Below, in pieces: positions 18,155 through 61,431 of a DNA stretch of 64,000 nucleotides. The first letter of the stretch is position 1, and each line of letters starts with the position of its first letter. Made by a program: the position numbers and the translations under genes. The notes beneath the pieces are model-generated. The model searched no databases and was not told the DNA's origin. It was given only the letters and a program-made list of their open reading frames with translations. This stretch comes from Patescibacteria group bacterium (GTDB lineage Bacteria; Patescibacteriota; Patescibacteriia; Patescibacteriales; WJLG01): NCBI GenBank assembly GCA_028707065.1, contig JAQTUZ010000003.1, positions 2,501 through 66,500 on the forward strand, given 5' to 3'.

Positions 18155-18385
18155 GTGAAAGAGAGAATAAATCCTCACGAAATAAATCCGGACGAATCCG
18201 ACGATTATGATGACAAAAAAAATTCGGCGGACGAACCCGGAAGTGCCGAATTAAGCGGGCTCGAACCAGAGGAAGAGCCCGATGACGTCGATGCTCCTAA
18301 AAAAATTACCAGTGCCTTTGATGTTATTAAACAAATATTGCCTGACGGCGACGACGAAATTGACGAACTTGATTTTGATAGATAA
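18155..18385 (+). CDS. Small highly acidic protein (76 aa)
   Basis: AAGGAGG is upstream of the GTG at 18155. The sequence is dominated by D/E and is followed directly by a terminator. Confidence 0.5.
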   Translation: MKERINPHEINPDESDDYDDKKNSADEPGSAELSGLEPEEEPDDVDAPKKITSAFDVIKQILPDGDDEIDELDFDR

Positions 18386-18981: not shown

Positions 18982-20211
18982 ATGATTAATCAAAAAATTA
19001 AAATATTTCTGGTAATATTATGCATTTTGGGCTTGAGCCTGAATACTTCGGCAGTGGTGCGCAGCATGACTGATGATCAGACGACCAAGGAGATTCAGCA
19101 GCTAAACCTGCGGATCAAGGATAATCAGAATAAAATGCAGGATATCGAGCGCGAGAAGGCGCAATATGCCGCCAATATCGCGGCCGCTCAGGCGCAAGCC
19201 AATACTTTGCAGGGGCAGATGGCGATTTTGGATAATCGCATTGCGGCGGCGGAGCTGGATATTGAGAGCACGCAAAATCAAATCGACCAGACCAATTTGC
19301 GGATGAAGCAGATCAATCTCGATATCAATAACAAACAAGCCTCGATCGAAAAGGAAAAAAATGATATTGCCATTACGATTAAATTAATTTATAAAGAGAA
19401 AGATGTCAGCGTCCTGGAAGCTCTATTGCTGAACAATTCGCTCGCGGATTTTCTTGATCGGATAAAATACTTGGAAGACGTGAATGAAGGAATGTCGGAA
19501 AGCTTGGATAATTTAAAAAATGACGAAGCGGACCTGGAAAAGGGCAAGGCCGAATTAACGCAAAAAAATACCGAATTGCAGACTTTAGCGGTTAGCCTCG
19601 AGCAAAATAAGCAAGCGTTGGAAAGCGACAAGCAGGATAAAGCCGGTGTCTTGGCGGAAACGCAAAATTCTCAGGCCAAATATCAAAGTTTGGTGCGGCA
19701 ATTGAAAGAACAGCAGGACCAGGCAAATACGGAAATCACTAATTTGGAAAAAACTGTCCGGGAAAAGCTTGCCAGCTTAAGCCAAAATAAATTAGAGCTT
19801 AGCCCTAGCGGTTTGATTTGGCCTGTCCCCAAAAATTATATCACCACTTATTTTCACGATCCGGAGTATCCTTTCCGCTATTTGTTCGAGCATCCGGGCG
19901 TGGATGTCCGCGCCGCGCAGGGAACGGAAGTGGTGGCGGCCGATTCGGGCTATGTGGCTCATGCCAAGATGAACGGCACGGCTTATGCCTATGTTATGAT
20001 CATTCACGGCAACGGCCTTTCCACGGTCTATGGCCATGTGGCCAAAATGTTCGTCAAGGAAGATGATTATGTGTCGCAGGGCGAGACGATCGGCTTGAGC
20101 GGCGGCACGCCGGGTACGCTTGGTTCCGGCCCGTTCACGACCGGCCCGCATCTTCATTTTGAAGTCCGCCAGGACGGCGTACCGGTCAATCCGCTCGAAT
20201 ATCTGCCGTAA
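18982..20211 (+). CDS. M23-family metallopeptidase with N-terminal coiled coil (EnvC-like)
   Basis: Signal or TM segment, a long Q/E/K/L-rich coiled coil, then HPGVDVRA...GPHLHFEVRQDGVPVNP (the HxxxD and HxH motifs). Confidence 0.9.
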   Translation: MINQKIKIFLVILCILGLSLNTSAVVRSMTDDQTTKEIQQLNLRIKDNQNKMQDIEREKAQYAANIAAAQAQANTLQGQMAILDNRIAAAELDIESTQNQIDQTNLRMKQINLDINNKQASIEKEKNDIAITIKLIYKEKDVSVLEALLLNNSLADFLDRIKYLEDVNEGMSESLDNLKNDEADLEKGKAELTQKNTELQTLAVSLEQNKQALESDKQDKAGVLAETQNSQAKYQSLVRQLKEQQDQANTEITNLEKTVREKLASLSQNKLELSPSGLIWPVPKNYITTYFHDPEYPFRYLFEHPGVDVRAAQGTEVVAADSGYVAHAKMNGTAYAYVMIIHGNGLSTVYGHVAKMFVKEDDYVSQGETIGLSGGTPGTLGSGPFTTGPHLHFEVRQDGVPVNPLEYLP

Positions 20212-20231
20212 TCAGAAATACGAAATAAAAA

Positions 20232-20260
20232 AACGGTTTACTGATTAAACCGTTTTTTCG
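20232..20260 (+). terminator. Rho-independent terminator
   Basis: A 9-bp aacggttta/taaaccgtt stem with a 5-nt loop, then ttttttcgtttt. Confidence 0.8.
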
Positions 20261-20266
20261 TTTTGT

Positions 20267-20506
20267 CTAAAAAAGATGATGATACCAGTAGGGATCCTTA
20301 ACGATTAATTTTAAAGGCGACAGCTGAATATCTATGGTGCAACAAGAGGAAATAAGAAAAATAATAATCAGAATAATGCCAATACCCAGACAAAGTTCTC
20401 CCCGAATATCCTTTTTCCCGGTATAATGGTTTGGCATCACTGAAAAAAAACCAAACACAAACAAAGGAAATCCGATTATCGCCGTGATAAAAGCTAGCGT
20501 ATTCAT
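20267..20506 (-). CDS. Small membrane protein (79 aa)
   Basis: AAGGAGG lies 4 nt upstream of the ATG on the minus strand. Two hydrophobic helices. Confidence 0.6.
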   Translation of the reverse strand: MNTLAFITAIIGFPLFVFGFFSVMPNHYTGKKDIRGELCLGIGIILIIIFLISSCCTIDIQLSPLKLIVKDPYWYHHLF

Positions 20507-20667
20507 GCCGCCTCCTTTATTAAGGTCTGCTATAAGCTAATATCATACTTCAAAGAACTGACATAATTTAAGCATTTTATTCAAAAAAAATCAATCTCGC
20601 TTGAACCTCGAGAGGGGATTAAGCGTATAAAACAAAGGATGCGTTCGTCGCGCATCCTTTTTCATGT

Positions 20668-20904
20668 TTAAGCATCCGAATGGCTTATTTTTTTTGTGCC
20701 TCGCCTGACTCTGCAGCGGAAAATCTTTACGAGCTCGATTACCAAATGAGACAGATACTGATTGAAGTTATCTGACCACCCATCAAAGATCGCCAGCAGC
20801 AATGTCATTGATACGAAGAGACAAGCAAGAATAATAAATCCGACACAGCGAAACAGATTCTTGATATAGGCGATCATCGCCCTTTTTATTCGCGCAAAAT
20901 TCAT
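20668..20904 (-). CDS. Small membrane protein (78 aa)
   Basis: ORF with one central TM segment (VGFIILACLFVSMTLLLAIF). A hairpin aggatgcg/cgcatcct lies just downstream. Confidence 0.45.
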   Translation of the reverse strand: MNFARIKRAMIAYIKNLFRCVGFIILACLFVSMTLLLAIFDGWSDNFNQYLSHLVIELVKIFRCRVRRGTKKISHSDA

Positions 20905-21034
20905 GGGAAACCCCCAGGGATATGTTAAATGTGCATATTTTGTAGTGTATTATCTTAGCAGATAAAAAACAGGAAGTCAAAGCCAGAATTTTTTTATTTT
21001 TTCAGATCTTTCCCGCCGTGCGACTGGCGGAGAA

Positions 21035-21829
21035 TTAAAATTCTAGATAGCTTTTTTCGTCAGCCGGAAATTCAAAGTGTTTGAATATGCTTGTTATTTT
21101 AATATTATCTGAAAAAATATTGGCGGACAATGATTTTCTCAAGTCATTTATTGAGAAATCATTTTTGGTTATTTCTTTGAGTCTTTTTACAATAATCTGC
21201 GCGGCCCTTTCCGTGATAGGGGAATTAAAATTCTTCTTCCTGCGCTGGTAACTGAAAAAAAGATATTGGTCGCATTTAATATTATTTTTTAAACAAAAAT
21301 TAAATATTGTTTTCAGAAGTTTTTTATTTAATATTATAATTTTACCGCCAATATTTATCCAGTCATTTTTTACGTTACCAAGTTTAATTTTTATAAGTTC
21401 CTTGGTTTTTAAGCCAGTTTCATATAGCATCATTATCAATAAATTATCTCTTTCGGCTGTTACTTTGTCGTTTTTCAAAATAATGCTCGATAAATTGTCT
21501 ATATTTTCCACTCGTTTAAAATTTTTCTTCCCTGCCCTTTCGATTGGTATATTTTTTATTTCTATTGTTACGCCCTTGGTCTCCTTTAAAAAATCGCAAT
21601 ATTTTAAAATAGCATAGATATATGAATTCTTACTTTGCTTTGATTTTCCAGTAGTATATTCGGTAATAAAATTCAAAAAGTTTTTTTCGGGAAAATTAAA
21701 ATAATTAATTTTTTCTCTTGCCAGGTAAGCCAAAAATTTATTTATTGAAATAAAATAATTCGATATAGTATTATGTTTATATCCCTTAGCCTTGAGCCAA
21801 GCAATAAATCCATCTAGTATTATTTTCAT
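21035..21829 (-). CDS. Divergent tyrosine recombinase (XerC/D-like fold, HxxR His replaced by Asn)
   Basis: N-terminal SAM-like core-binding region (FIAWLKAKGYKHNTISNYFISINKFLAYL). AERDNLLIMMLYETGLKTKEL carries the Arg-I block. INDLRKS replaces HxLRH. The tail IFKHFEFPADEKSY aligns by eye with LLGHESLDTTTRY. Very AT-rich. Confidence 0.65.
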   Translation of the reverse strand: MKIILDGFIAWLKAKGYKHNTISNYFISINKFLAYLAREKINYFNFPEKNFLNFITEYTTGKSKQSKNSYIYAILKYCDFLKETKGVTIEIKNIPIERAGKKNFKRVENIDNLSSIILKNDKVTAERDNLLIMMLYETGLKTKELIKIKLGNVKNDWINIGGKIIILNKKLLKTIFNFCLKNNIKCDQYLFFSYQRRKKNFNSPITERAAQIIVKRLKEITKNDFSINDLRKSLSANIFSDNIKITSIFKHFEFPADEKSYLEF

Positions 21830-22305
21830 AAATTAAATTCTAATAAATAATCGTCAGACGGGACAAGCATTATTTTGCAATTTTTTAAGAAAGATAAATT
21901 CAAATAAAGTTTATATAAGTTGGTAGTGCCGACTTCTATAAATACATTCTTATCGGTCCCGAGGTCGGCTCGTCCATAATATAATGCCGGTTCTTTCTCG
22001 ACTTTTATGCCATTGGTTAGAAAATATTTTTCTATGGTCGAGATAAGATCGTTATGCCAATTTCCTCCGTGTTTTTTCAAATTATCAGTATTAAGATTGT
22101 TTTTCGCCTGCCAAATAGAATTATTTAGATAAGAAATTTTTTTTAACTTCATTTTCCCTGAAACAATAAAAATGGCGATTTTTCTCAATAAGCAATATTC
22201 GCATTTTATCGGATCGTTTTGTTCGAAAGGGGATTGGGAAATATTGTTTTTAAGAAATTCAATTTCATCGGAGATCGCTTTTTCCGCTTCATTCCAATCG
22301 ATCAT
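21826..22305 (-). CDS. Hypothetical protein (159 aa) with a PD-(D/E)xK-like core
   Basis: YYGRADLGTDKNVFIEVGTT resembles the G-x-(P)D ... (D/E)-V-K-T strand pair of restriction-endonuclease-like folds, but Gly sits in the Lys position. It overlaps the downstream gene by 4 nt. Confidence 0.5.
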   Translation of the reverse strand: MIDWNEAEKAISDEIEFLKNNISQSPFEQNDPIKCEYCLLRKIAIFIVSGKMKLKKISYLNNSIWQAKNNLNTDNLKKHGGNWHNDLISTIEKYFLTNGIKVEKEPALYYGRADLGTDKNVFIEVGTTNLYKLYLNLSFLKNCKIMLVPSDDYLLEFNL

Positions 22306-22309
22306 AAAA

Positions 22310-23254
22310 TTAATTTTTTAAAGGATGAAATTTTTTTTGAACGCTTTCGGCGTAACGATCAGAGGCATGAACGTAGCGCGTCGTGGTGTCCAATGATTCG
22401 TGGCCCAAAAGAACTTGAATGGCGGCGGGGTTAGCTCCGCATTCAGCTAAATAAGTGGCAAAGCCGTGTCTTAAAGTATGAGCGGAAACAGGAAGATTGA
22501 TTCCCAAAAGCTCGCGATATCTTTTTATTCTTTCCTGAATATAGTTAGCGGAAATTTTAGCGCCCTTAATATTGTTGGCGTTCATTCCTTTGAACGGGAT
22601 GAAGACAAAGGGGGATTGCTTGCCTTTTATTTTCAAGTATTCATCCAAATGCTTCCTGGCTCTAGGCGTCAAATAAACAAATCTTTCTTTTTTTCCCTTG
22701 CCTAAAATAAAAATTCTTCCTTGAGCGTCGATTTTATCCTGCCGCAGATTAACCAACTCGGAAATTCTCATTCCCGTGGCAAACAGTACTTCCATAATAG
22801 CCCTGTTTCTTAAAGCGATTCTTTTATCGGTTTCCAGCTTCATTGGTGATTCTATTAAAGTGATCAGCTCGCTTAATTCCGGTATCTGCGGTTTCTTTTT
22901 TATTGTCTTGCTCATCTTGATCGCGTCCGGCGGCAAAGGAACAGGATAATCCATCTCAATTAGATATTTAAACAAGGAGCGAAGAGAGGATAGCATCCGA
23001 TTAGTAGAGTAGGCCGATAGATTTTTTTCGGTTTTTTGATCGGCCGGAGTCTTTCGATCAATGGAAATCAGATAAGCTTTATAATTCAAAATATCTCTTT
23101 TAGAAATTTTTTTAAATTCTAAATCCTCCTCTTCTAAAAAATTTTTAAAAACGGTCAAATCCCGTTCATAGTTATAAATCGTTTCGGGGGAGTAGCCATT
23201 AACTTTAAGATCAAGGAGAAAATCCTCTATTAATGGAAGTTCTATTGTTTTCAT
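22310..23254 (-). CDS. Tyrosine recombinase, XerC/XerD type (full catalytic set)
   Basis: LRNRAIMEVLFATGMRISEL (Arg), GKGKKERFVYL (Lys), AHTLRHGFATYL (HxxR), LLGHESLDTTTRYVH (His, Tyr). Confidence 0.9.
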   Translation of the reverse strand: MKTIELPLIEDFLLDLKVNGYSPETIYNYERDLTVFKNFLEEEDLEFKKISKRDILNYKAYLISIDRKTPADQKTEKNLSAYSTNRMLSSLRSLFKYLIEMDYPVPLPPDAIKMSKTIKKKPQIPELSELITLIESPMKLETDKRIALRNRAIMEVLFATGMRISELVNLRQDKIDAQGRIFILGKGKKERFVYLTPRARKHLDEYLKIKGKQSPFVFIPFKGMNANNIKGAKISANYIQERIKRYRELLGINLPVSAHTLRHGFATYLAECGANPAAIQVLLGHESLDTTTRYVHASDRYAESVQKKFHPLKN

Positions 23255-23640
23255 ATTATTAGACTGAGTGTAAGGGATATTATACTCAGTACTTTTATAT
23301 TATATAAAAGGGCTGATTCGTCGTCAAGCCCTTGGTTTTTAAAATCTATTTAATGTTTTAGTGTATTCACTATTGGATCCTGATGTTACAATACTACACT
23401 ACCCGTATTTCCGGATAACCATGGGTATCGAAAATATTTATTTTTTTATTATAATTTAACAATATTATATTTTGTCTTTTTAGTTCTAATTTTAGGCTAT
23501 GTTGTTAATAGCGATTCATGTATATTTTGTTAATATTAGCCATAAAATAGATACTTAGGCCCTAAAAGGCCCTATAGCGCTTGAGAACTGATTTTCAGTA
23601 TTCCACCTCATCTTTTAAGATAAATTTTATAGTCAGGCGC

Positions 23641-23829
23641 TTAATTGGTCATCATTACTCCTAAAATATGGATAGCTGGAACGAAATTCAGTAAAAATTT
23701 GATAACCAAGAGAAAGATGCCGACAACTAAGATTAAAGCAACTAAGATGGCCAGAAAGAAAACGAATTTAAATATTCTTTCCGATGATTCATTGCTCATA
23801 AAAAAATAATGCTTGGTGATTTTGAACAA
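23641..23829 (-). CDS. Possible small membrane protein (62 aa)
   Basis: ORF with one long hydrophobic helix. No SD and no clear promoter. Confidence 0.3.
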   Translation of the reverse strand: MFKITKHYFFMSNESSERIFKFVFFLAILVALILVVGIFLLVIKFLLNFVPAIHILGVMMTN

Positions 23830-23940
23830 CTTATCGATTTGGACCTGTTATCAGGTTTTTAAACCCGACGATCACGACCCAAATCTGCCTGCCTGCCGGC
23901 CGGCAGGCGAATTGTATCACAATCTCCAAATATATTATAG

Positions 23941-24798
23941 TTATTGATAATAAATTTTGTCGCCAAAGCGCAAGTCGATCATTTTTTGCTTGGCAAAATC
24001 ATCTTTCAATTTTTGATCTTTTAAAATCAATAAATTGTTCAGTTGCTTACCGACATCGTCTTTGGTGTTGAAAATTATTTTTAAACCCTCAGGCGTCAGC
24101 AATTTTATCGTGTCCAGATCATCGTCGACGATAAAATGATCGATACTGATCCCCGGCATTTGTTTGGCGAATTTATCGTAAAGCGAGGCGGTAAAATTAA
24201 GGTAGCTCGGGTCAACCGCGATTCGGTTGCCGTACATTCGTTGCGTTGATTGATTGACGATCAAGGGATATTTATTGTCTTTTAGGTCCAGAGGGCTGAT
24301 CTCTTGCACCGCGTAGCCGTCAGTATCGGCATAATAATATTTATCCCCTTCTCGCCAGATACAGGCCAAAGGCTTATTGACAATATCGATTGAGAGCGAA
24401 TCCGGCCATTCTTTTTCAACATCGATCTTTTGAAAGTGATATTTTTTTTGCAAGGTGGCCTCGAATTTATTTTTACTGAAGAAAAGCAGATTGCTTTGCG
24501 GAAACAGCAGAAAATGATTGGCGCGCATTTGCTCGCTGATCAAGCCGCGCACATCGGCATCGGACATTTGATCGACGCCGGAGATGGAAATTTTTTTGAT
24601 CCCCCAGAAATGCGAAATAAAAACGAACCAAATAATGAAAATCAAAACCAGGACGATGAAACCGATAATTAACTTGCCTTTGACGCCGGCAAATGACATT
24701 ATCCTTTCCCGCCTTCTATAAAAAGGATTTTCCAGCTTTTTTTCGTGGTAGTCGATCGGCAGATGCCTTCTGGCTGGATAATTGCCGAATAGAGACAT
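23941..24798 (-). CDS. ftsQ: Cell division protein FtsQ-type (POTRA domain)
   Basis: Cytoplasmic tail, a single TM segment (LIIGFIVLVLIFIIWFVFI), then IKKISISGVDQMSDADV, a POTRA-like start. Confidence 0.75.
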   Translation of the reverse strand: MSLFGNYPARRHLPIDYHEKKLENPFYRRRERIMSFAGVKGKLIIGFIVLVLIFIIWFVFISHFWGIKKISISGVDQMSDADVRGLISEQMRANHFLLFPQSNLLFFSKNKFEATLQKKYHFQKIDVEKEWPDSLSIDIVNKPLACIWREGDKYYYADTDGYAVQEISPLDLKDNKYPLIVNQSTQRMYGNRIAVDPSYLNFTASLYDKFAKQMPGISIDHFIVDDDLDTIKLLTPEGLKIIFNTKDDVGKQLNNLLILKDQKLKDDFAKQKMIDLRFGDKIYYQ

Positions 24799-27101: not shown

Positions 27102-28592
27102 TTATGTGTTATGCGATTTCGGTTTCATCAGCGGAAATAACTGGCATTCGCGGATCGGTTTATCGACCAGAAAGGCGAATAAGCGTTCGCCAAAACCAAA
27201 CCCGCAGGTAGGCGGCATGCCATGTTCGAGCATCTCCACGAATTCCCAATCCGGCATCATCGCTTCCTTGTCGCCGCGGTCGATCAATTTTTGCTGTTCC
27301 TCAAAGCGCTGGCGCTGTTCCAGCGGATCATTCAATTCCGAATAGCCATTGCCAATTTCCGAACCGGCGATAATGACCTGAAAACGCTCGGTCAGCTCGG
27401 GATTACCGGGCAGTGATTTAGCCAGCGGCGAAACAAGCTTGGGATGATTGACCGCAAAAGCCGGGCCAACGATCTTTTTCCGGCAGAATTTCCAAAGCGT
27501 GTCAATCAGGCGTTCCTTGCTATCGCCTTCATATTTAACATTCAACTCGGCTAATTTGTTTTTAATCTTTTCCACGTCCGCGTCCAAAACATCAATTCCC
27601 GTCTCATCTTTGATCTTGGCGCAATAATCAATTCTGGGCCAATCCCCTTTTAAATCGTATTCCTGATCCTTGGTTTTAAATTCGGTGGTGTTGAAAACAT
27701 CTTTGGCGATTTTTTGATAAAGCTCCTGGACAATCTTCATCCCGTCTTCATAGTTCGCATACGCCCAATAAAATTCCAGATTGGTGAATTCCTGAACGTG
27801 ATCGGGAGAAGATCCTTCATTGCGGAAAACCCGGCCGATTTCGAAAGTCTTTTCAAAGCCGCCGGCCATCAATCTTTTTTGCCAGAGCTCGCCGACAGAA
27901 ATTCTTAAATAAAGATCAAGATTAAAATCATCATGATGGGTGCGGAACGGATTGGCTTCGGCGCCGCCGGTAGTATTTTCCAAGCTGGGAGTTTCCACTT
28001 CCAAAAATCCTTTTTCCTGCATAAAACCGCGCACCGTGTTCCAAAATTTTGCTTTCTTGACGAAGAGATCGCGAACTTCCGGATCGGTCAGGAGATCCAA
28101 ATATCTGAGGCGAAATCGTTCATCTTCGTTTTCCAAACCATGCCATTTTTCCGGCAAAGGCAGAAGAGCTTTGGCTAAAATTTTCCAGCTCGAAACCATC
28201 AAGCTTTTTTCGCCTTTGTGGGTGACAAAACAAGTGCCGGCCGCCTCGATAAAATCGCCCATATCGATCAGCTTGGTAAATTTTTTGAATTCTTCGAGGC
28301 CGATGTCTTTTTTGGAAAATGCTAATTGCATCTTGCCGGTGCCGTCAAAAAGTTCGATAAAAGTCAGATTGCCAAATTCCCTTTTGATCATTATTCTTCC
28401 CGCGAGAACAATTGTTTCTTTGGCGGCTTCCAGATCGGAAAAATCCGTCAAAGCGGCAAGGATCGAATGAGTTCGGGGTGATTTATCCGGAAAAGGATTG
28501 CTGCCGGATTTTTTTAGTTCCTCAAGTTTTTTCAAGCGGTCTTCTCTCTCGCCAGGAGTATGTTCAGCGCCATTTTGTTTTTCGTTTGACAT
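27102..28592 (-). CDS. lysS: Lysyl-tRNA synthetase (class II)
   Basis: OB-fold anticodon domain (VLAGRIMIKREFGNLTFIELFDGTGKMQL). Class II motifs FRNEGSSPDHVQEFT and GFGFGERL. Confidence 0.95.
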   Translation of the reverse strand: MSNEKQNGAEHTPGEREDRLKKLEELKKSGSNPFPDKSPRTHSILAALTDFSDLEAAKETIVLAGRIMIKREFGNLTFIELFDGTGKMQLAFSKKDIGLEEFKKFTKLIDMGDFIEAAGTCFVTHKGEKSLMVSSWKILAKALLPLPEKWHGLENEDERFRLRYLDLLTDPEVRDLFVKKAKFWNTVRGFMQEKGFLEVETPSLENTTGGAEANPFRTHHDDFNLDLYLRISVGELWQKRLMAGGFEKTFEIGRVFRNEGSSPDHVQEFTNLEFYWAYANYEDGMKIVQELYQKIAKDVFNTTEFKTKDQEYDLKGDWPRIDYCAKIKDETGIDVLDADVEKIKNKLAELNVKYEGDSKERLIDTLWKFCRKKIVGPAFAVNHPKLVSPLAKSLPGNPELTERFQVIIAGSEIGNGYSELNDPLEQRQRFEEQQKLIDRGDKEAMMPDWEFVEMLEHGMPPTCGFGFGERLFAFLVDKPIRECQLFPLMKPKSHNT

Positions 28593-28650
28593 ATAAACAA
28601 AAAATCTTTCCCCTCCCGTAAGAAAGGAAATTGCTAATATTTATGTAGTT

Positions 28651-28808: not shown

Positions 28809-28845
28809 TAAAAAAAGCCCTCGGAAAAAAAATAGGGCCGAGGGC
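28809..28845 (-). terminator. Rho-independent terminator (minus strand)
   Basis: gccctcgg (28817-28824) pairs with ccgagggc (28838-28845). On the minus strand the hairpin is followed by T7. Confidence 0.75.
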
Positions 28846-29026
28846 AAGATGCGAGTGGAAAGAAAGGAAGGAACGGGGTGGGAAGATAGAGAGAAGGAGC
28901 GAAAAAAAATTGATTGAAAAAGGGGGAAAGGAAGAGAAAAGAGAGAAGAGAGAGAAAAAAAGTTAAAAGGGTCGGGGAAGGAGGTTGAGCGGGAGGGGGG
29001 GTAAATGGGCTTGGGAATGGGGTGAT
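28846..29026. repeat. Polypurine/polypyrimidine tract (~180 bp, about 85% purine on the plus strand by hand count)
   Basis: ggaaagaaaggaaggaacggggtgggaagatagagagaaggagcg...gggggaaaggaagagaaaagagagaagagagagaaaaaaag...ggggaaggaggttgagcgggaggggggg. I counted only about six C on the plus strand. Confidence 0.85.
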
Positions 29027-29143
29027 ATCAATCAATTTAATTTAAAGGTGCGGGAGATTTTTTGTTTTTGGTGTTTTGCTTTTGGTGTTTTTTGCGGGGG
29101 TGATTAAGAACTGTTTTTTATTCTGGCGGTTCAGGCGCCAGCT

Positions 29144-29185
29144 AAAAGAAAAACAGGTGAGGTCGGCCGCTTTCGCGGCCACCTG
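29144..29185 (-). terminator. Rho-independent terminator (minus strand) with GAAA tetraloop
   Basis: Minus strand: caggtggccgc-gaaa-gcggccgacctcacctg followed by tttttctttt. Confidence 0.7.
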
Positions 29186-29252
29186 CTTCCCCGCCCCCCG
29201 ATCAAAATCGGGGGTTGGCGGTTTTCCCCGACCCATCCTTTACAGTGAAGCA

Positions 29253-29336
29253 TCATACGCATAAAATGCGTATTATAATTGCCTCTAGGAAGGGCCAAGC
29301 AAGAATGACCGTTGTCGCGATGAAAATAACTTTCAT
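29253..29336 (-). CDS. 27-aa hydrophobic peptide MKVIFIATTVILAWPFLEAIIIRILCV
   Basis: Too short for the ORF track (shorter than any ORF it lists). AGGAGG (29347-29342) lies 5 nt upstream of the ATG. A terminator sits about 70 nt downstream, and the flanks are GC-rich and structured. Confidence 0.45.
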   Translation of the reverse strand: MKVIFIATTVILAWPFLEAIIIRILCV

Positions 29337-29465
29337 GCTCCCCTCCTTTCAAGGAAGACTTTTACAGCACAAGGGCATAGAAGCACTATACCCGCCCCCT
29401 TTTTATCATAGTCCTAAAAATGTGTCAATATTGACAAAACAATGAATATTAATCATTCTTGGGCA

Positions 29466-29498
29466 ACAAAAAAAGACGGAACATCGCCGTCTTTTTTG
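29466..29498. terminator. Bidirectional terminator downstream of greA
   Basis: A-run, aagacgg/ccgtctt stem, then T6. Confidence 0.8.
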
Positions 29499-29542: not shown

Positions 29543-30016
29543 TTATTCAATCCCCAATATTTTATATTTCATCTCCCCTTTTGGTGTTTCCACTATTACT
29601 TCGTCCCCTTTCTTGCGCCCCAGGAAAGCCATGCCCAGCGGCGATTCGTTGGAGATCTTGCCTTCGCCCGGAGCCGCTTCGTTAAAACTGACGATCGAGA
29701 AATTCTTTTCTTCGCCGGTTTTCACGTTTTGCGCCTTGATCTTCGAACCCATGGCCGCTTTGCCATTGCCATTGCCATGACCGTCGCTTTCCACGACAGT
29801 TAAATTTTTTAACAGATTCGAGAGCTCGATGATCCGGCCGTCATTAAAGGCTTGCGCGTCTTTGGCTTCATGATATTCGGCGTTCTCGCTTAAATCGCCC
29901 AACTCTTTGGCTTTCTCGATCCGATCAGCGATCTCTTTTCTCTTGACGTTAACCGCGAGATCCAACTCTTCCTGCAATTTATTAAACCCTTCTTGAGAAA
30001 TGATTTGATCGGGCAT
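29543..30016 (-). CDS. greA: Transcription elongation factor GreA
   Basis: GFNKLQEELD...ELGDLSENAEYHEAKDAQAFNDGRIIEL is canonical GreA. A Gly/Asn-rich insert lies between the two domains. Confidence 0.93.
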   Translation of the reverse strand: MPDQIISQEGFNKLQEELDLAVNVKRKEIADRIEKAKELGDLSENAEYHEAKDAQAFNDGRIIELSNLLKNLTVVESDGHGNGNGKAAMGSKIKAQNVKTGEEKNFSIVSFNEAAPGEGKISNESPLGMAFLGRKKGDEVIVETPKGEMKYKILGIE

Positions 30017-37981: not shown

Positions 37982-38177
37982 GCTTCCTCCTTGTTGCTGG
38001 TGATGATTGATTATACGCGTCCGAATTCGGTTCAAGCTAGCTCGACTAATCTTTTTAGTTCTGCGCAATAACTTTTGGTTTTATTTGCGCAGCTGGTTAT
38101 CCGCCAAGCTTACCTCTTTCGGCTTTCAGCTCTTTATGATTTAAGATTATCAAATTTTAATATTTTGTCAATATTTT

Positions 38178-39080
38178 ATGAACATTCGAGCGGCGCTGGT
38201 ATTCGGCGTCAAAGAAACTGAAGTTAAAAATATCGATCAGCCGGAAATTGAAGCGGAAGAAATTTTGTCATTTGTTTTGAAGAAAAATAGAGAATTTTTG
38301 TTTACTTATCCGGAAAAAAAATTAAATTTTTGCCAAAGCGCCAGATATAAATATCTGATCAAGCGCCGAGTCCGCGGCGCGCCTTTAGCGTATCTTACCG
38401 GGCACCGGGAGTTCTATGGTTTGGATTTTAAAGTCAATAGGAATGTCTTGATCCCCCGCCCCGAAACCGAATTGATGGTCGATGAAATTCTAAAGCGATT
38501 TAAAAACGCCCGCCAGGGAATGATCAGCACCTGGCAAAAAAAATCAGCCATCAGGAATATTATCGATCTGGGCACCGGTTCCGGCTGCATCATCATTTCC
38601 TTGGCTAAAAATTGGCGCGGTAATAAAATTAAATATTGGGGTTTGGATATTTCCCGGAAGGCGCTCGCGGTCGCCCGCCGGAATGCCAGACTAAATGGCT
38701 TAAAAGGCCGTATAAATTTTTTATACAGCGATTTGCTTAATAATATTGATAAAAAAATTTTTAAAGAGCCGCTGATCATCGCGGCCAATCTCCCTTATTT
38801 GACCGCGGCTCAAGTAAAAGATTCGCCAACTATCCAAAGAGAGCCAAAAATCGCCTTGCTGGCCGGAGTCGATGGCCTTGATCATTATCGGCGGTTATTT
38901 CGGCAGATCAAGGATCGCGCCAGATTGTTAAAAAATAAAATATTTGTTTTTTGCGAGATCGATGATGCCCAAAGAAATCCCCTGGAAACGTTGGTTAAAC
39001 AAAATTTTTCCAATTCCGAATTATCTCTCATCAAGGATCTGGGCGGCCATGATCGTTTGGCGATCATTGAACTGCATTAA
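38178..39080 (+). CDS. prmC: Release factor glutamine N5-methyltransferase (PrmC/HemK)
   Basis: IIDLGTGSGCIIISLA (SAM motif I), AANLPYL (an NPPY-type motif) and PLAYLTGHREFYG. Confidence 0.9.
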   Translation: MNIRAALVFGVKETEVKNIDQPEIEAEEILSFVLKKNREFLFTYPEKKLNFCQSARYKYLIKRRVRGAPLAYLTGHREFYGLDFKVNRNVLIPRPETELMVDEILKRFKNARQGMISTWQKKSAIRNIIDLGTGSGCIIISLAKNWRGNKIKYWGLDISRKALAVARRNARLNGLKGRINFLYSDLLNNIDKKIFKEPLIIAANLPYLTAAQVKDSPTIQREPKIALLAGVDGLDHYRRLFRQIKDRARLLKNKIFVFCEIDDAQRNPLETLVKQNFSNSELSLIKDLGGHDRLAIIELH

Positions 39081-61080: not shown

Positions 61081-61431
61081 TTAGTCGTTTAAAGACAGGT
61101 TTGAAAACGGGCTGAACCGGATAAACTCAGCTATCCGTTGGTTGAAATCACTGCCCGGGATTAAATGGTCAACGATCTCTTTCCCGGCTAACGGCAGAAA
61201 GAACCGATATCTGGCCCGCGGGAGATAGATGTAACAAAAAAAAGTGCCTATCTCGAGTATTGGCCGACGGTTTTCCAGGGCGTCGCTATCACCGGTATAG
61301 ATAAAAAATTCGCCAAGATACATAACCGGATACCAGCAATCGAGGTCATTCCTTAACCGCTCCAGAACGATCTCAAGAACGGCGTGCCTGTTTCTTAAAT
61401 ACCGGAAAAACCGGCAAATTGTTTTAATCAT
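61081..61431 (-). CDS. Hypothetical protein (116 aa)
   Basis: AAGGAGG lies 5 nt upstream of the ATG at 61431 on the minus strand. No family recognised. Confidence 0.55.
   Translation of the reverse strand: MIKTICRFFRYLRNRHAVLEIVLERLRNDLDCWYPVMYLGEFFIYTGDSDALENRRPILEIGTFFCYIYLPRARYRFFLPLAGKEIVDHLIPGSDFNQRIAEFIRFSPFSNLSLND

Follow-up and report, generated by a model that had tools for sequence, protein, structure and literature searches.

A candidate structured RNA with a translation-locked, toxin-like mini-ORF between greA and lysS of Patescibacteria

The greA-lysS spacer and its RNA element

The genes greA and lysS lie on the same strand of contig JAQTUZ010000003.1 (assembly GCA_028707065.1) from a Patescibacteria group bacterium, and the 950-nucleotide (nt) spacer between them holds the element described here. 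The whole stretch of this contig that was analysed, 64,000 nt long, is referred to as the window. Within the spacer, the original prediction had recognized a 27-codon open reading frame (ORF) for a hydrophobic peptide, with its Shine-Dalgarno sequence (SD) locked in a hairpin, and had likened this layout to that of type I toxin genes. Our analysis points to a clade-specific, independently transcribed, structured RNA, which is probably bifunctional and carries a translation-locked, toxin-like peptide in most lineages; our confidence in this reading as a whole is evenly divided. The locus comprises the following features:

29543-30016, minus strand: greA, flanking gene
29497-29469, minus strand: greA terminator, from a terminator scan
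29400-29437, minus strand: promoter of the element, with -35 box TTGACA (29428-29423), 17-nt spacer and extended -10 box TGATAAAAA (29408-29400)
29373-29393, minus strand: hairpin P1, GGGUAUAG-UGCUU-CUAUGCCC, at the predicted RNA 5' end
29364-29372, minus strand: conserved single-stranded linker UUGUGCUGU
29342-29357, minus strand: SD hairpin, with anti-SD CUUCCU (29357-29352), UGAA loop (29351-29348) and SD AGGAGG (29347-29342)
29320-29336, minus strand: start-codon hairpin AUGAAA-GUUAU-UUUCAU
29253-29336, minus strand: ORF of 27 codons plus stop, encoding MKVIFIATTVILAWPFLEAIIIRILCV, with its ATG at 29336, 5 nt past the SD
29230-29296, minus strand: nested stems P3, P4a and P4b, from independent minimum-free-energy (MFE) folds
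29296-29287 with 29239-29230, minus strand: P3, GGCCCU-UCCU paired with AGGA-U-GGGUC
29285-29280 with 29252-29247, minus strand: P4a, GAGGCA paired with UGCUUC
29272-29256, minus strand: P4b, UACGCAU-UUU-AUGCGUA
29195-29214, minus strand: GC-rich hairpin P5, CCCCCGAU-UUUG-AUCGGGGG, helix 1 of the covariation analysis
29183-29194, minus strand: conserved purine box GCGGGGAAGCAG, complementary to the anti-SD CUUCCU(U)
29144-29185, minus strand: P6 region, with hairpin GGCCGC-GAAA-GCGGCC (29180-29165), outer CAGGUG/CACCUG stem and U-run (29153-29144)
29113-29141, minus strand: hairpin P7, CUGGCG-CCUGAAC-CGCCAG (29141-29123), followed by an A-run (29120-29113)
28850-29110, minus strand: G-depleted tail of ~250 nt, A/C-rich then C/U-rich, with 0-4 G per 40 nt against ~9 expected
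28810-28844, minus strand: canonical intrinsic terminator CCCUCGG-(13-nt loop)-CCGAGGG-C-U7, directly upstream of the lysS -35 box
28679-28651, minus strand: lysS promoter, 11/12 consensus matches
27102-28592, minus strand: lysS, flanking gene, with its start at 28592

The SD AGGAGG (29347-29342), the ATG located 5 nt downstream (29336) and the ORF (29336-29253) were all found where the original prediction had placed them, as were the ccccgat-type GC-rich hairpin (29214-29195) and the palindrome with TTGACA (29423-29436).

A comparison with LysS-anchored loci from GTDB genomes places the organism among Candidatus Falkowbacteria-like Patescibacteria. In about 70 of the Patescibacteria loci, greA and lysS were adjacent, the raw distance from match to match being 65-180 nt, a figure that includes ~87 nt of lysS coding sequence not covered by the match. 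A greA-lysS distance of 750-950 nt was found only in the window and in four of these loci (L001-L004; loci are cited by label where they have to be told apart). The long spacer is therefore a lineage-specific insertion. The spacers of L001-L003 could be aligned to that of the window. One locus with a GreA of 86% identity, L092, does not contain the element and retains the lysS promoter, so that presence of the element is polymorphic inside the clade.

Copies of the element were gathered from the LysS-anchored loci, from a promoter-pattern scan of metagenomes (5 loci) and from contigs encoding close GreA homologs. This resulted in 14 distinct copies including that of the window (alignment A2), all of them in related Patescibacteria and all located between greA and lysS. 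Eight copies served to build a covariance model of the 3' domain, which recovered the other 6 with E values of 2e-9 to 3e-3 and gave no significant match in the rest of the window or in 78 other loci; nhmmer agreed with this model on family membership. Paralogous loci, for which the original prediction had suggested a search, were detected by neither method, in the window or in the other loci: the element occurs as one copy per locus, always at the same chromosomal site. A mobile or viral origin was considered and rejected, the viral contigs displaying no match to the promoter pattern or the 3'-domain pattern.

The promoter of the element has its -35 box inside a perfect 14-bp palindrome, TGTCAATATTGACA (29436-29423), which is the sole copy in the window at ≤1 mismatch. 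The pattern TTGTCAATATTGAC-N15(16)-TGRTAAAAA is identical in 11 of the 14 copies; the form common to the copies is TTTGTCAATATTGAC-N15-TGRTAAAAA, comprising -35 box TTGACA, 17-nt spacer and extended -10 box. Transcription would start at ~29399-29393. All 10 ORF-bearing copies have an intact palindrome versus two of the four ORF-less copies, a weak trend (hypergeometric p ~0.07). A partial copy of the palindrome, TTTTGTCAATATT, is present at 38160-38178, upstream of a plus-strand gene starting at 38178.

Two of the loci, L082 (1295-1834, minus strand) and L086 (2512-3042, minus strand), contain homologous ORFs for membrane proteins of 176-179 amino acids (28% identity, E 5e-9), which lie between greA and the element and diverge from the same palindromic -35 box. 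Because of these divergent ORFs, the palindrome is probably a bidirectional -35 box or an operator and offers no evidence for an antitoxin. A counterpart, a 146-amino-acid multi-pass membrane gene, was seen in the contig of P0003; the divergent membrane ORFs of 146-179 amino acids belong to no known family. At the corresponding position, L090 has an IS200-like transposase together with another membrane ORF, and the window has neither a divergent membrane ORF nor a transposase. The transposase gene of L090 (2569-2889, minus strand), inserted between greA and the element, is of the IS200/IS605 Y1 type. The region between greA and the element seems to have received insertions repeatedly. A divergent small RNA starting from the palindromic -35 box was considered for the window and rejected, since the -10 box on that side is poor and only ~45 nt remain to the greA terminator. 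The latter (29469-29497) reads as a terminator both ways, being flanked by an A-run and a U-run, and is flagged by the scan on the plus strand.

Architecture and conservation of the RNA

The strong folding expected from the original prediction was confirmed with RNAfold: the segment 29400-29140 (261 nt) folds with -107.8 kcal/mol (z = -4.8), and none of 200 dinucleotide shuffles was as stable. The 5' hairpin P1 shows compensatory changes from AG/CU to GA/UC in L003, L094, L090, and L093, as read from the alignment. No sequence block of the family is better conserved than the 3' arm of P1 together with the linker: CCCTTGTGCT does not vary in most copies, the ORF-less ones included, and the invariant linker CCCUUGUGCU follows directly after P1. 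The nested P3/P4 architecture was present in 13 of the 14 independent MFE folds, again including ORF-less copies, with very different P4b sequences.

The 3' domain, composed of P5, P6, and P7, was recovered in all 14 copies when these domains were folded separately. Covariation was assessed with a model-based alignment and per-sequence folds; the MAFFT alignments (A2 and A3), in which helix registers were misaligned, were dropped. In the model-based alignment, 93.2% of cells are paired versus 82.8% in shuffles, and nine of 20 pairs change on both sides, a number reached by none of 500 shuffles. The covariation score is 0.300, versus 0.127 for shuffles and ≤0.08 for slid controls. In P6 (helix 2), four of nine pairs change on both sides and the loop is of the GNRA type in 9 of 14 copies. 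One pair of P7 (helix 3) is A-U in six copies, G-C in four, and G-U in three. The A-run after P7 can pair with the U-run before it, and does so in the MFE folds of most copies. The covariation in P5-P7, the P3/P4 architecture and the retention of the helices in four ORF-less copies show that RNA structure is conserved beyond what coding would need.

The hairpin of P6 had been described as a GAAA-capped terminator. Both the hairpin and the U-run are present, but this is not a canonical terminator, because the scan did not flag it, its inner stem and the U-run are 11 nt apart, and the conserved structure extends past it. The U-run after P6 may act as a leaky or early 3' end, giving an RNA of ~245 nt. 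The end of the longest transcript, of ~580 nt, is likely the terminator at 28810-28844. An equivalent hairpin with a U-run precedes the lysS promoter in all copies that reach lysS, and its stem sequences differ in L089, L003, L094, L093, L004, and L095. By consensus matches, the element thus has a promoter and a terminator of its own, apart from the signals of greA and lysS.

The tail between the core and this terminator includes the motif ACCUCCUU and several CUUCC/UCCUU motifs, which are anti-SD-like. Its composition pattern holds in most copies (e.g., L001, L002, L004, L085, L086, and L089); in L004, the tail consists of literal (AACAACAAAAC)n followed by (CUUCC)n repeats. The tail might serve to load Rho, to act as a protein sponge or to pair with SDs. 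At the boundary of the A/C-rich and C/U-rich parts (~29021-29047, minus strand), a conserved AT-rich box, TTTAAATTAAATTGATTGATATCACC, was observed. This box is common to L001 and L085/L087 and contains a TTGACA-like hexamer with no -10 box after it.

Another hairpin was observed in the lysS leader, between the lysS promoter and the ATG: UUUCCUUUCU-UACG-GGAGGGGAAA followed by U7 (28608-28630, minus strand). A comparable hairpin with a U-run occurs in L001-L003, L087, and L094. It may be a transcription attenuator.

The survey for known RNAs covered candidates suggested by the strong promoter, the GNRA loops and the GGAAGCAG box. Namely, signal recognition particle (SRP) RNA, 6S RNA, transfer-messenger RNA (tmRNA), RNase P RNA, T-box and riboswitches were rejected, as Rfam and ARAGORN returned none of them. 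At E values up to 10, Rfam revealed nothing relevant in either the intergenic region or the L001 copy, which lacks the ORF, and ARAGORN identified no tmRNA or tRNA in the window. The motif order of the element also does not fit SRP helix 8.

The hydrophobic mini-ORF, its lock and its alleles

The window peptide has a grand average of hydropathicity (GRAVY) of 2.04 and is predicted to form a single hydrophobic helix, probably targeted to the membrane. Conservation of the peptide frame in related genomes, on which the original prediction depended, was found: 10 of the 14 copies, these 10 spanning 74-93% GreA identity, retain the SD AAAGGAGGG, a start codon located 5-7 nt downstream and an open hydrophobic frame. 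The homologs comprise 18-30 amino acids and are all strongly hydrophobic (GRAVY 1.4-2.0); the start codon is TTG in L086. The peptides encoded by the other nine ORF-bearing copies are:

L085: MRVIFIAAAFILVRPFLEIIIISVLDAIH
L086: MKIIIAIAILFYGSPILGAIIDFL
L003: MRILIATMLVLFMPLLDTILNLRIVIK
L094: MRILIATMLILFMPLLDIILNIRIIFH
L090: MKLFTATMLILFMPFLDALLNLRIVIK
L093: MKKFFITTMLIVFMPLLDVILSLRLTIIFK
L004: MKYAIVVIFLMPTFLAILNLLKLPF
L002: MKYCFMATAIFLLIHAFL
L082: MNYISFIAAVFILLLHACPWAK

Indels in the ORF are multiples of three. The subclade of L003, L094, L090, and L093 displays codon-position diversities of 0.28/0.15/0.46, and its ratio of nonsynonymous to synonymous changes (pN/pS) is 0.39 in frame versus 0.77 and 1.91 in the other frames, values that derive from small counts (~19 synonymous sites per pair) in an ORF overlapped by RNA helices. 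By this measure, the ORF of the L003 subclade carries a coding signature. Examples of frame-specific synonymous changes in this clade are TTG to CTC (Leu) and AGG to AGA (Arg). The last 14 codons of the ORF and its stop codon lie inside the P3/P4 stems; the C-terminus and the length of the peptide therefore vary with P4b. At the other end, the conserved N-terminal residues F/L-I/M-A/T coincide with the 3' arm of the AUG hairpin.

The minus-strand sequence at the lock is aagtCTTCCTtgaaAGGAGGggagcATGaaagtt. As originally predicted, the SD pairs with the upstream CUUCCU across the UGAA loop. The stem consists of six pairs, five Watson-Crick and one G.U, and was recovered in the MFE fold as well as in the centroid fold; averaged over the six SD bases, the pairing probability in the full RNA is 0.94, with the upstream CUUCCU as partner. 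An equivalent hairpin was identified in nine of the 10 ORF-bearing copies. The start codon itself also lies in a hairpin, which the original prediction did not include, with a pairing probability of 0.99. This second hairpin covaries, being GGUUAUGAG/CUCAUAGCC in L003 and L094 and GGUAAUGAAGA/UCUUUAUUACC in L093. Predicted pairing probabilities amount to 0.80-1.00 for the SD in nine of the 10 copies and to at least 0.83 for the AUG in seven. That 10 of 14 copies share the SD hairpin as well as the ORF with its start codon indicates that the layout is more than chance. Alternative pairings were also detected: the SD pairs with the in-ORF CCCUUCCU in the MFE fold of L085, and RNAalifold pairs the upstream CUUCC with the GGGGAAG box (columns 84-88 with 286-290), although weakly and with many G.U pairs.

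The SD of the mini-ORF is exceptional for this genome. GGAGG or AGGAG occurs at -20 to -4 in two of 53 long ORFs of the window (a rough count with first-ATG starts), and greA has no SD. The longer motif AAGGAGG followed by a start codon was counted at eight window sites, always ahead of short ORFs of 27-116 amino acids, which start at 18155, 50279, and 56531 on the plus strand and at 61431, 37981, 29336, 20506, and 10517 on the minus strand. Such an SD may be the hallmark of a special group of small genes, or its main role may be that of a helix strand. The ORF starting at 20506, which encodes a 79-amino-acid membrane protein, is located in a low-GC stretch (20001-24000; GC 0.35 versus ~0.44 elsewhere in the window) that may be a foreign island.

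Four copies are ORF-less. In L001, L088, and L089, the SD, the AUG and ~12 codons are missing, and the gap starts exactly after CUUCCUUGA; the fourth is L095. The -10 box and all helices are retained in each of the four. Outside the indel, the copies closest to L001 in RNA identity are L085 (70%) and the window (69%), both ORF-bearing, and the closest to L088 is L002 (78%), which also bears the ORF. The ORF has therefore been lost (or gained) at least two independent times. Since the scaffold is conserved, covaries and outlives loss of the SD and AUG, the RNA most likely has a function of its own. This function is most likely regulatory or protein-binding, with the peptide as an optional cargo. 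Retention of the helices in ORF-less copies would be unexpected for an RNA whose sole role was to express a toxin and keep it in check.

The peptide search of Pfam, NCBIfam, and PADLOC gave no match for the 5-6 peptides tested, at E values up to 1-10, and these searches revealed no relation to described toxin families (Hok/Gef, Ldr/Fst, TisB, Ibs, ShoB, and TxpA/BsrG). With regard to an antitoxin, a sigma70-like promoter, TTTACA-17-TAAAAT, was identified on the plus strand at 29239-29267; it would give an RNA across the ORF start. Such a promoter (sigma70-like, at least 10/12 matches) is absent from all 14 related loci scanned and thus private to the window, and an antisense antitoxin starting from this site was rejected because the promoter is not conserved. 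The statement of the original prediction that no antisense RNA had been identified stands. Elsewhere in the 64 kb, no stretch of at least 15 nt was complementary to the RNA beyond chance, and Rfam gave no match to a toxin or antitoxin RNA. The literature searches turned up no paper on type I toxins in Patescibacteria, and a broad search on non-coding RNAs of the Candidate Phyla Radiation (CPR) returned nothing relevant. Since no antitoxin and no known toxin family were found, the element is not classifiable as a type I toxin-antitoxin system. The part of the original prediction that survives is the layout, i.e., a hydrophobic ORF, a buried SD and AUG, and a structured RNA with its own predicted promoter; neither an antitoxin nor a toxin family could be added to it.

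Interpretation and significance

The mechanism that we propose would have arisen by insertion of the element between greA and lysS in one Falkowbacteria-like subgroup of Patescibacteria. Transcription would proceed from the near-consensus promoter, with the -35 box in a 14-bp palindrome that is a probable operator or bidirectional promoter. The RNA would consist of a core of ~290 nt with a 5'-terminal hairpin and six further conserved helices, followed by a G-poor unstructured tail and the canonical terminator. Translation of the ORF would be held off by two local hairpins, one pairing the SD with the upstream CUUCCU and another burying the AUG separately, and the in-ORF CCCUUCCU and the downstream GGGGAAG box would compete for the same strands. 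With the SD and AUG buried and the strands in competition, exposure of the ribosome-binding site would depend on refolding, on processing or on a bound factor. A switch between the alternative pairings, as well as any toxicity of the peptide, is conjectural.

Several observations weigh against the reading of the element as a probably bifunctional RNA with a toxin-like peptide. Transcription, RNA ends, and translation are all predicted from sequence. The covariation alignment is fitted to the model and covers 14 sequences from one clade, and Rfam yielded no gathering-score match in the whole window. The subclade of the window, L085, and L086 has codon-position diversities of 0.46/0.33/0.39 and a pN/pS of 0.93, without a coding signature or a sign of purifying selection. 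The N-terminal F-I-A and P-F/L-L motifs are equally explained by the AUG hairpin and helix P3. Given the rarity of SDs in this genome (2/53), GGAGG could be mainly a structural strand. Finally, the ORF-less copies could be young remnants instead of selected forms.

A more specific version of the bifunctional reading, which we put forward tentatively as a possibility, is that the element represents a new family of CPR RNAs, in which the G-free, anti-SD-rich tail titrates ribosomes, mRNAs or an RNA-binding protein, and in which a conserved multi-helix regulatory RNA in most lineages also carries a locked, toxin-like membrane peptide, controlled by competing pairings and a palindromic operator. 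The CU-rich, anti-SD-like motifs of the tail are only suggestive of such regulatory activity.

A classical type I toxin-antitoxin system would comprise a membrane-damaging peptide, a folded mRNA as its inert storage form and an unseen antisense or trans-encoded RNA, with the ORF-less copies as inactivated remnants. The hydrophobic peptide of 18-30 amino acids with a basic N-terminus, the buried SD and AUG, the long structured untranslated regions (UTRs) and the strong promoter all fit this description. The lineage-specific insertion with its presence/absence polymorphism, the repeated deletion of the SD/AUG segment alone, as if the peptide were costly, the palindromic operator in 10/10 ORF-bearing versus 2/4 ORF-less copies, and the one antisense promoter-like site in the window (29239-29267) may be read in the same way. 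However, this antisense promoter is absent from 14/14 related loci, a complementary sequence elsewhere in the 64 kb and a match to a known toxin family are both lacking, and the element is a single copy at a fixed site without paralogs. Moreover, promoter and helices all persist in the ORF-less copies, the helices with compensatory changes, and pN/pS is 0.93 in the window subclade. We consider such a system unlikely.

Improbable as well is a pure non-coding RNA without any peptide, in which the apparent SD, AUG, and ORF would be by-products of purine- and pyrimidine-rich helix strands. This would agree with a scaffold kept without the ORF in 4/14 copies, with the location of the ORF 3' half in P3/P4 and the variation of its length (18-30 amino acids) with P4b, with the missing coding signature in the window clade, with the rarity of SDs in the genome, and with an SD and AUG that are almost always paired. 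It does not explain why AAAGGAGGG, a start codon 5-7 nt further on and a hydrophobic frame recur in 10 copies across 74-93% GreA identity, why indels come in multiples of three, or why the L003 clade shows a frame-specific synonymous excess; the other AAGGAGG sites of the window that are followed by a start codon all precede ORFs as well.

Least probable by far is a cis-acting leader, attenuator or insulator of lysS, or a 3' element of greA: the element is always located between these genes on their strand, and offers a terminator-rich, G-poor (Rho-loading-like) stretch ahead of lysS, but greA has its own terminator, lysS has its own 11/12 promoter downstream of the canonical terminator, the element has a strong promoter of its own, most relatives, including L092, have greA-lysS without it, and neither a T-box or other Rfam leader nor a run of Lys codons in the ORF was found. 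A Lys-sensing leader peptide was rejected on the same grounds, i.e., separate terminators and lysS promoter, no Lys codon run, and absence from most relatives.

The bifunctional RNA that we favour resembles two kinds of known systems. Type I toxin mRNAs of Gram-positive and enteric bacteria include fst/RNAI, txpA, bsrG, hok, tisB, ibs, shoB, dinQ, and zorO. Like these, the element would encode a hydrophobic single-helix peptide of less than 60 amino acids (here 18-30) with a basic residue after Met, and it shares with them a strong promoter, a long folded 5' UTR burying the SD, a structured 3' region and a lineage-restricted presence. It would also work as they do, through a buried SD and AUG and a competition of pyrimidine with purine strands. 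In contrast to type I systems, neither a cis-antisense nor a nearby trans-encoded antitoxin was found, the peptide has no sequence relation to catalogued toxins, and the element is a single copy at a fixed site. Its scaffold is kept with covariation after loss of the ORF, and a 250-nt G-depleted tail follows the core.

Dual-function small RNAs (sRNAs) include RNAIII/delta-hemolysin and psm-mec, the former from Staphylococcus aureus, SR1/SR1P of Bacillus subtilis and SgrS/SgrT of Escherichia coli. The element is similar to these in that a conserved multi-helix RNA and a very short ORF share one predicted transcript, and that some lineages do without the peptide. The arrangement is that of RNAIII: the ORF, located 5', is followed on its 3' side by pyrimidine-rich, C-containing motifs that could pair with SDs. 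The differences are that the element has no assigned target mRNAs, chaperone, or quorum or metabolic input; that its peptide is a transmembrane-type helix and not an amphipathic one; and that its CU-rich motifs lie in an unstructured tail instead of in hairpin loops.

Protein sponges of the CrcZ type carry AANAANAA repeats, and Rho utilization (rut) sites are C-rich and G-poor. The tail of the element, ~250 nt long, G-depleted, unstructured and A/C-rich then C/U-rich, with (AACAACAAAAC)n in L004, resembles both, in composition only.

The element is new in that neither Rfam nor the protein family collections searched contain a counterpart, and it is unusual for its natural ORF-plus and ORF-minus alleles, its G-free tail and its SD-poor host. 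Its copies are restricted to one small clade. CPR bacteria, or Patescibacteria, have tiny genomes, and to our knowledge almost nothing is known of their regulatory RNAs or small proteins. If the bifunctional family is real, it would be the first type I-toxin-like or RNAIII-like module from this phylum, and one free of an antitoxin. The locus is open to comparative work, as the promoter pattern and the covariance model define the family, and it provides natural ORF-plus, ORF-minus, and element-minus alleles at one chromosomal site. Should the peptide be a toxin without an RNA antitoxin, the type I-like modules would widen to include purely intramolecular locks. The G-depleted tail and the rarity of SDs bear on the organization of translation initiation in the phylum. 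If the RNA is bifunctional, minimal symbiotic bacteria would also invest in control at the RNA level.

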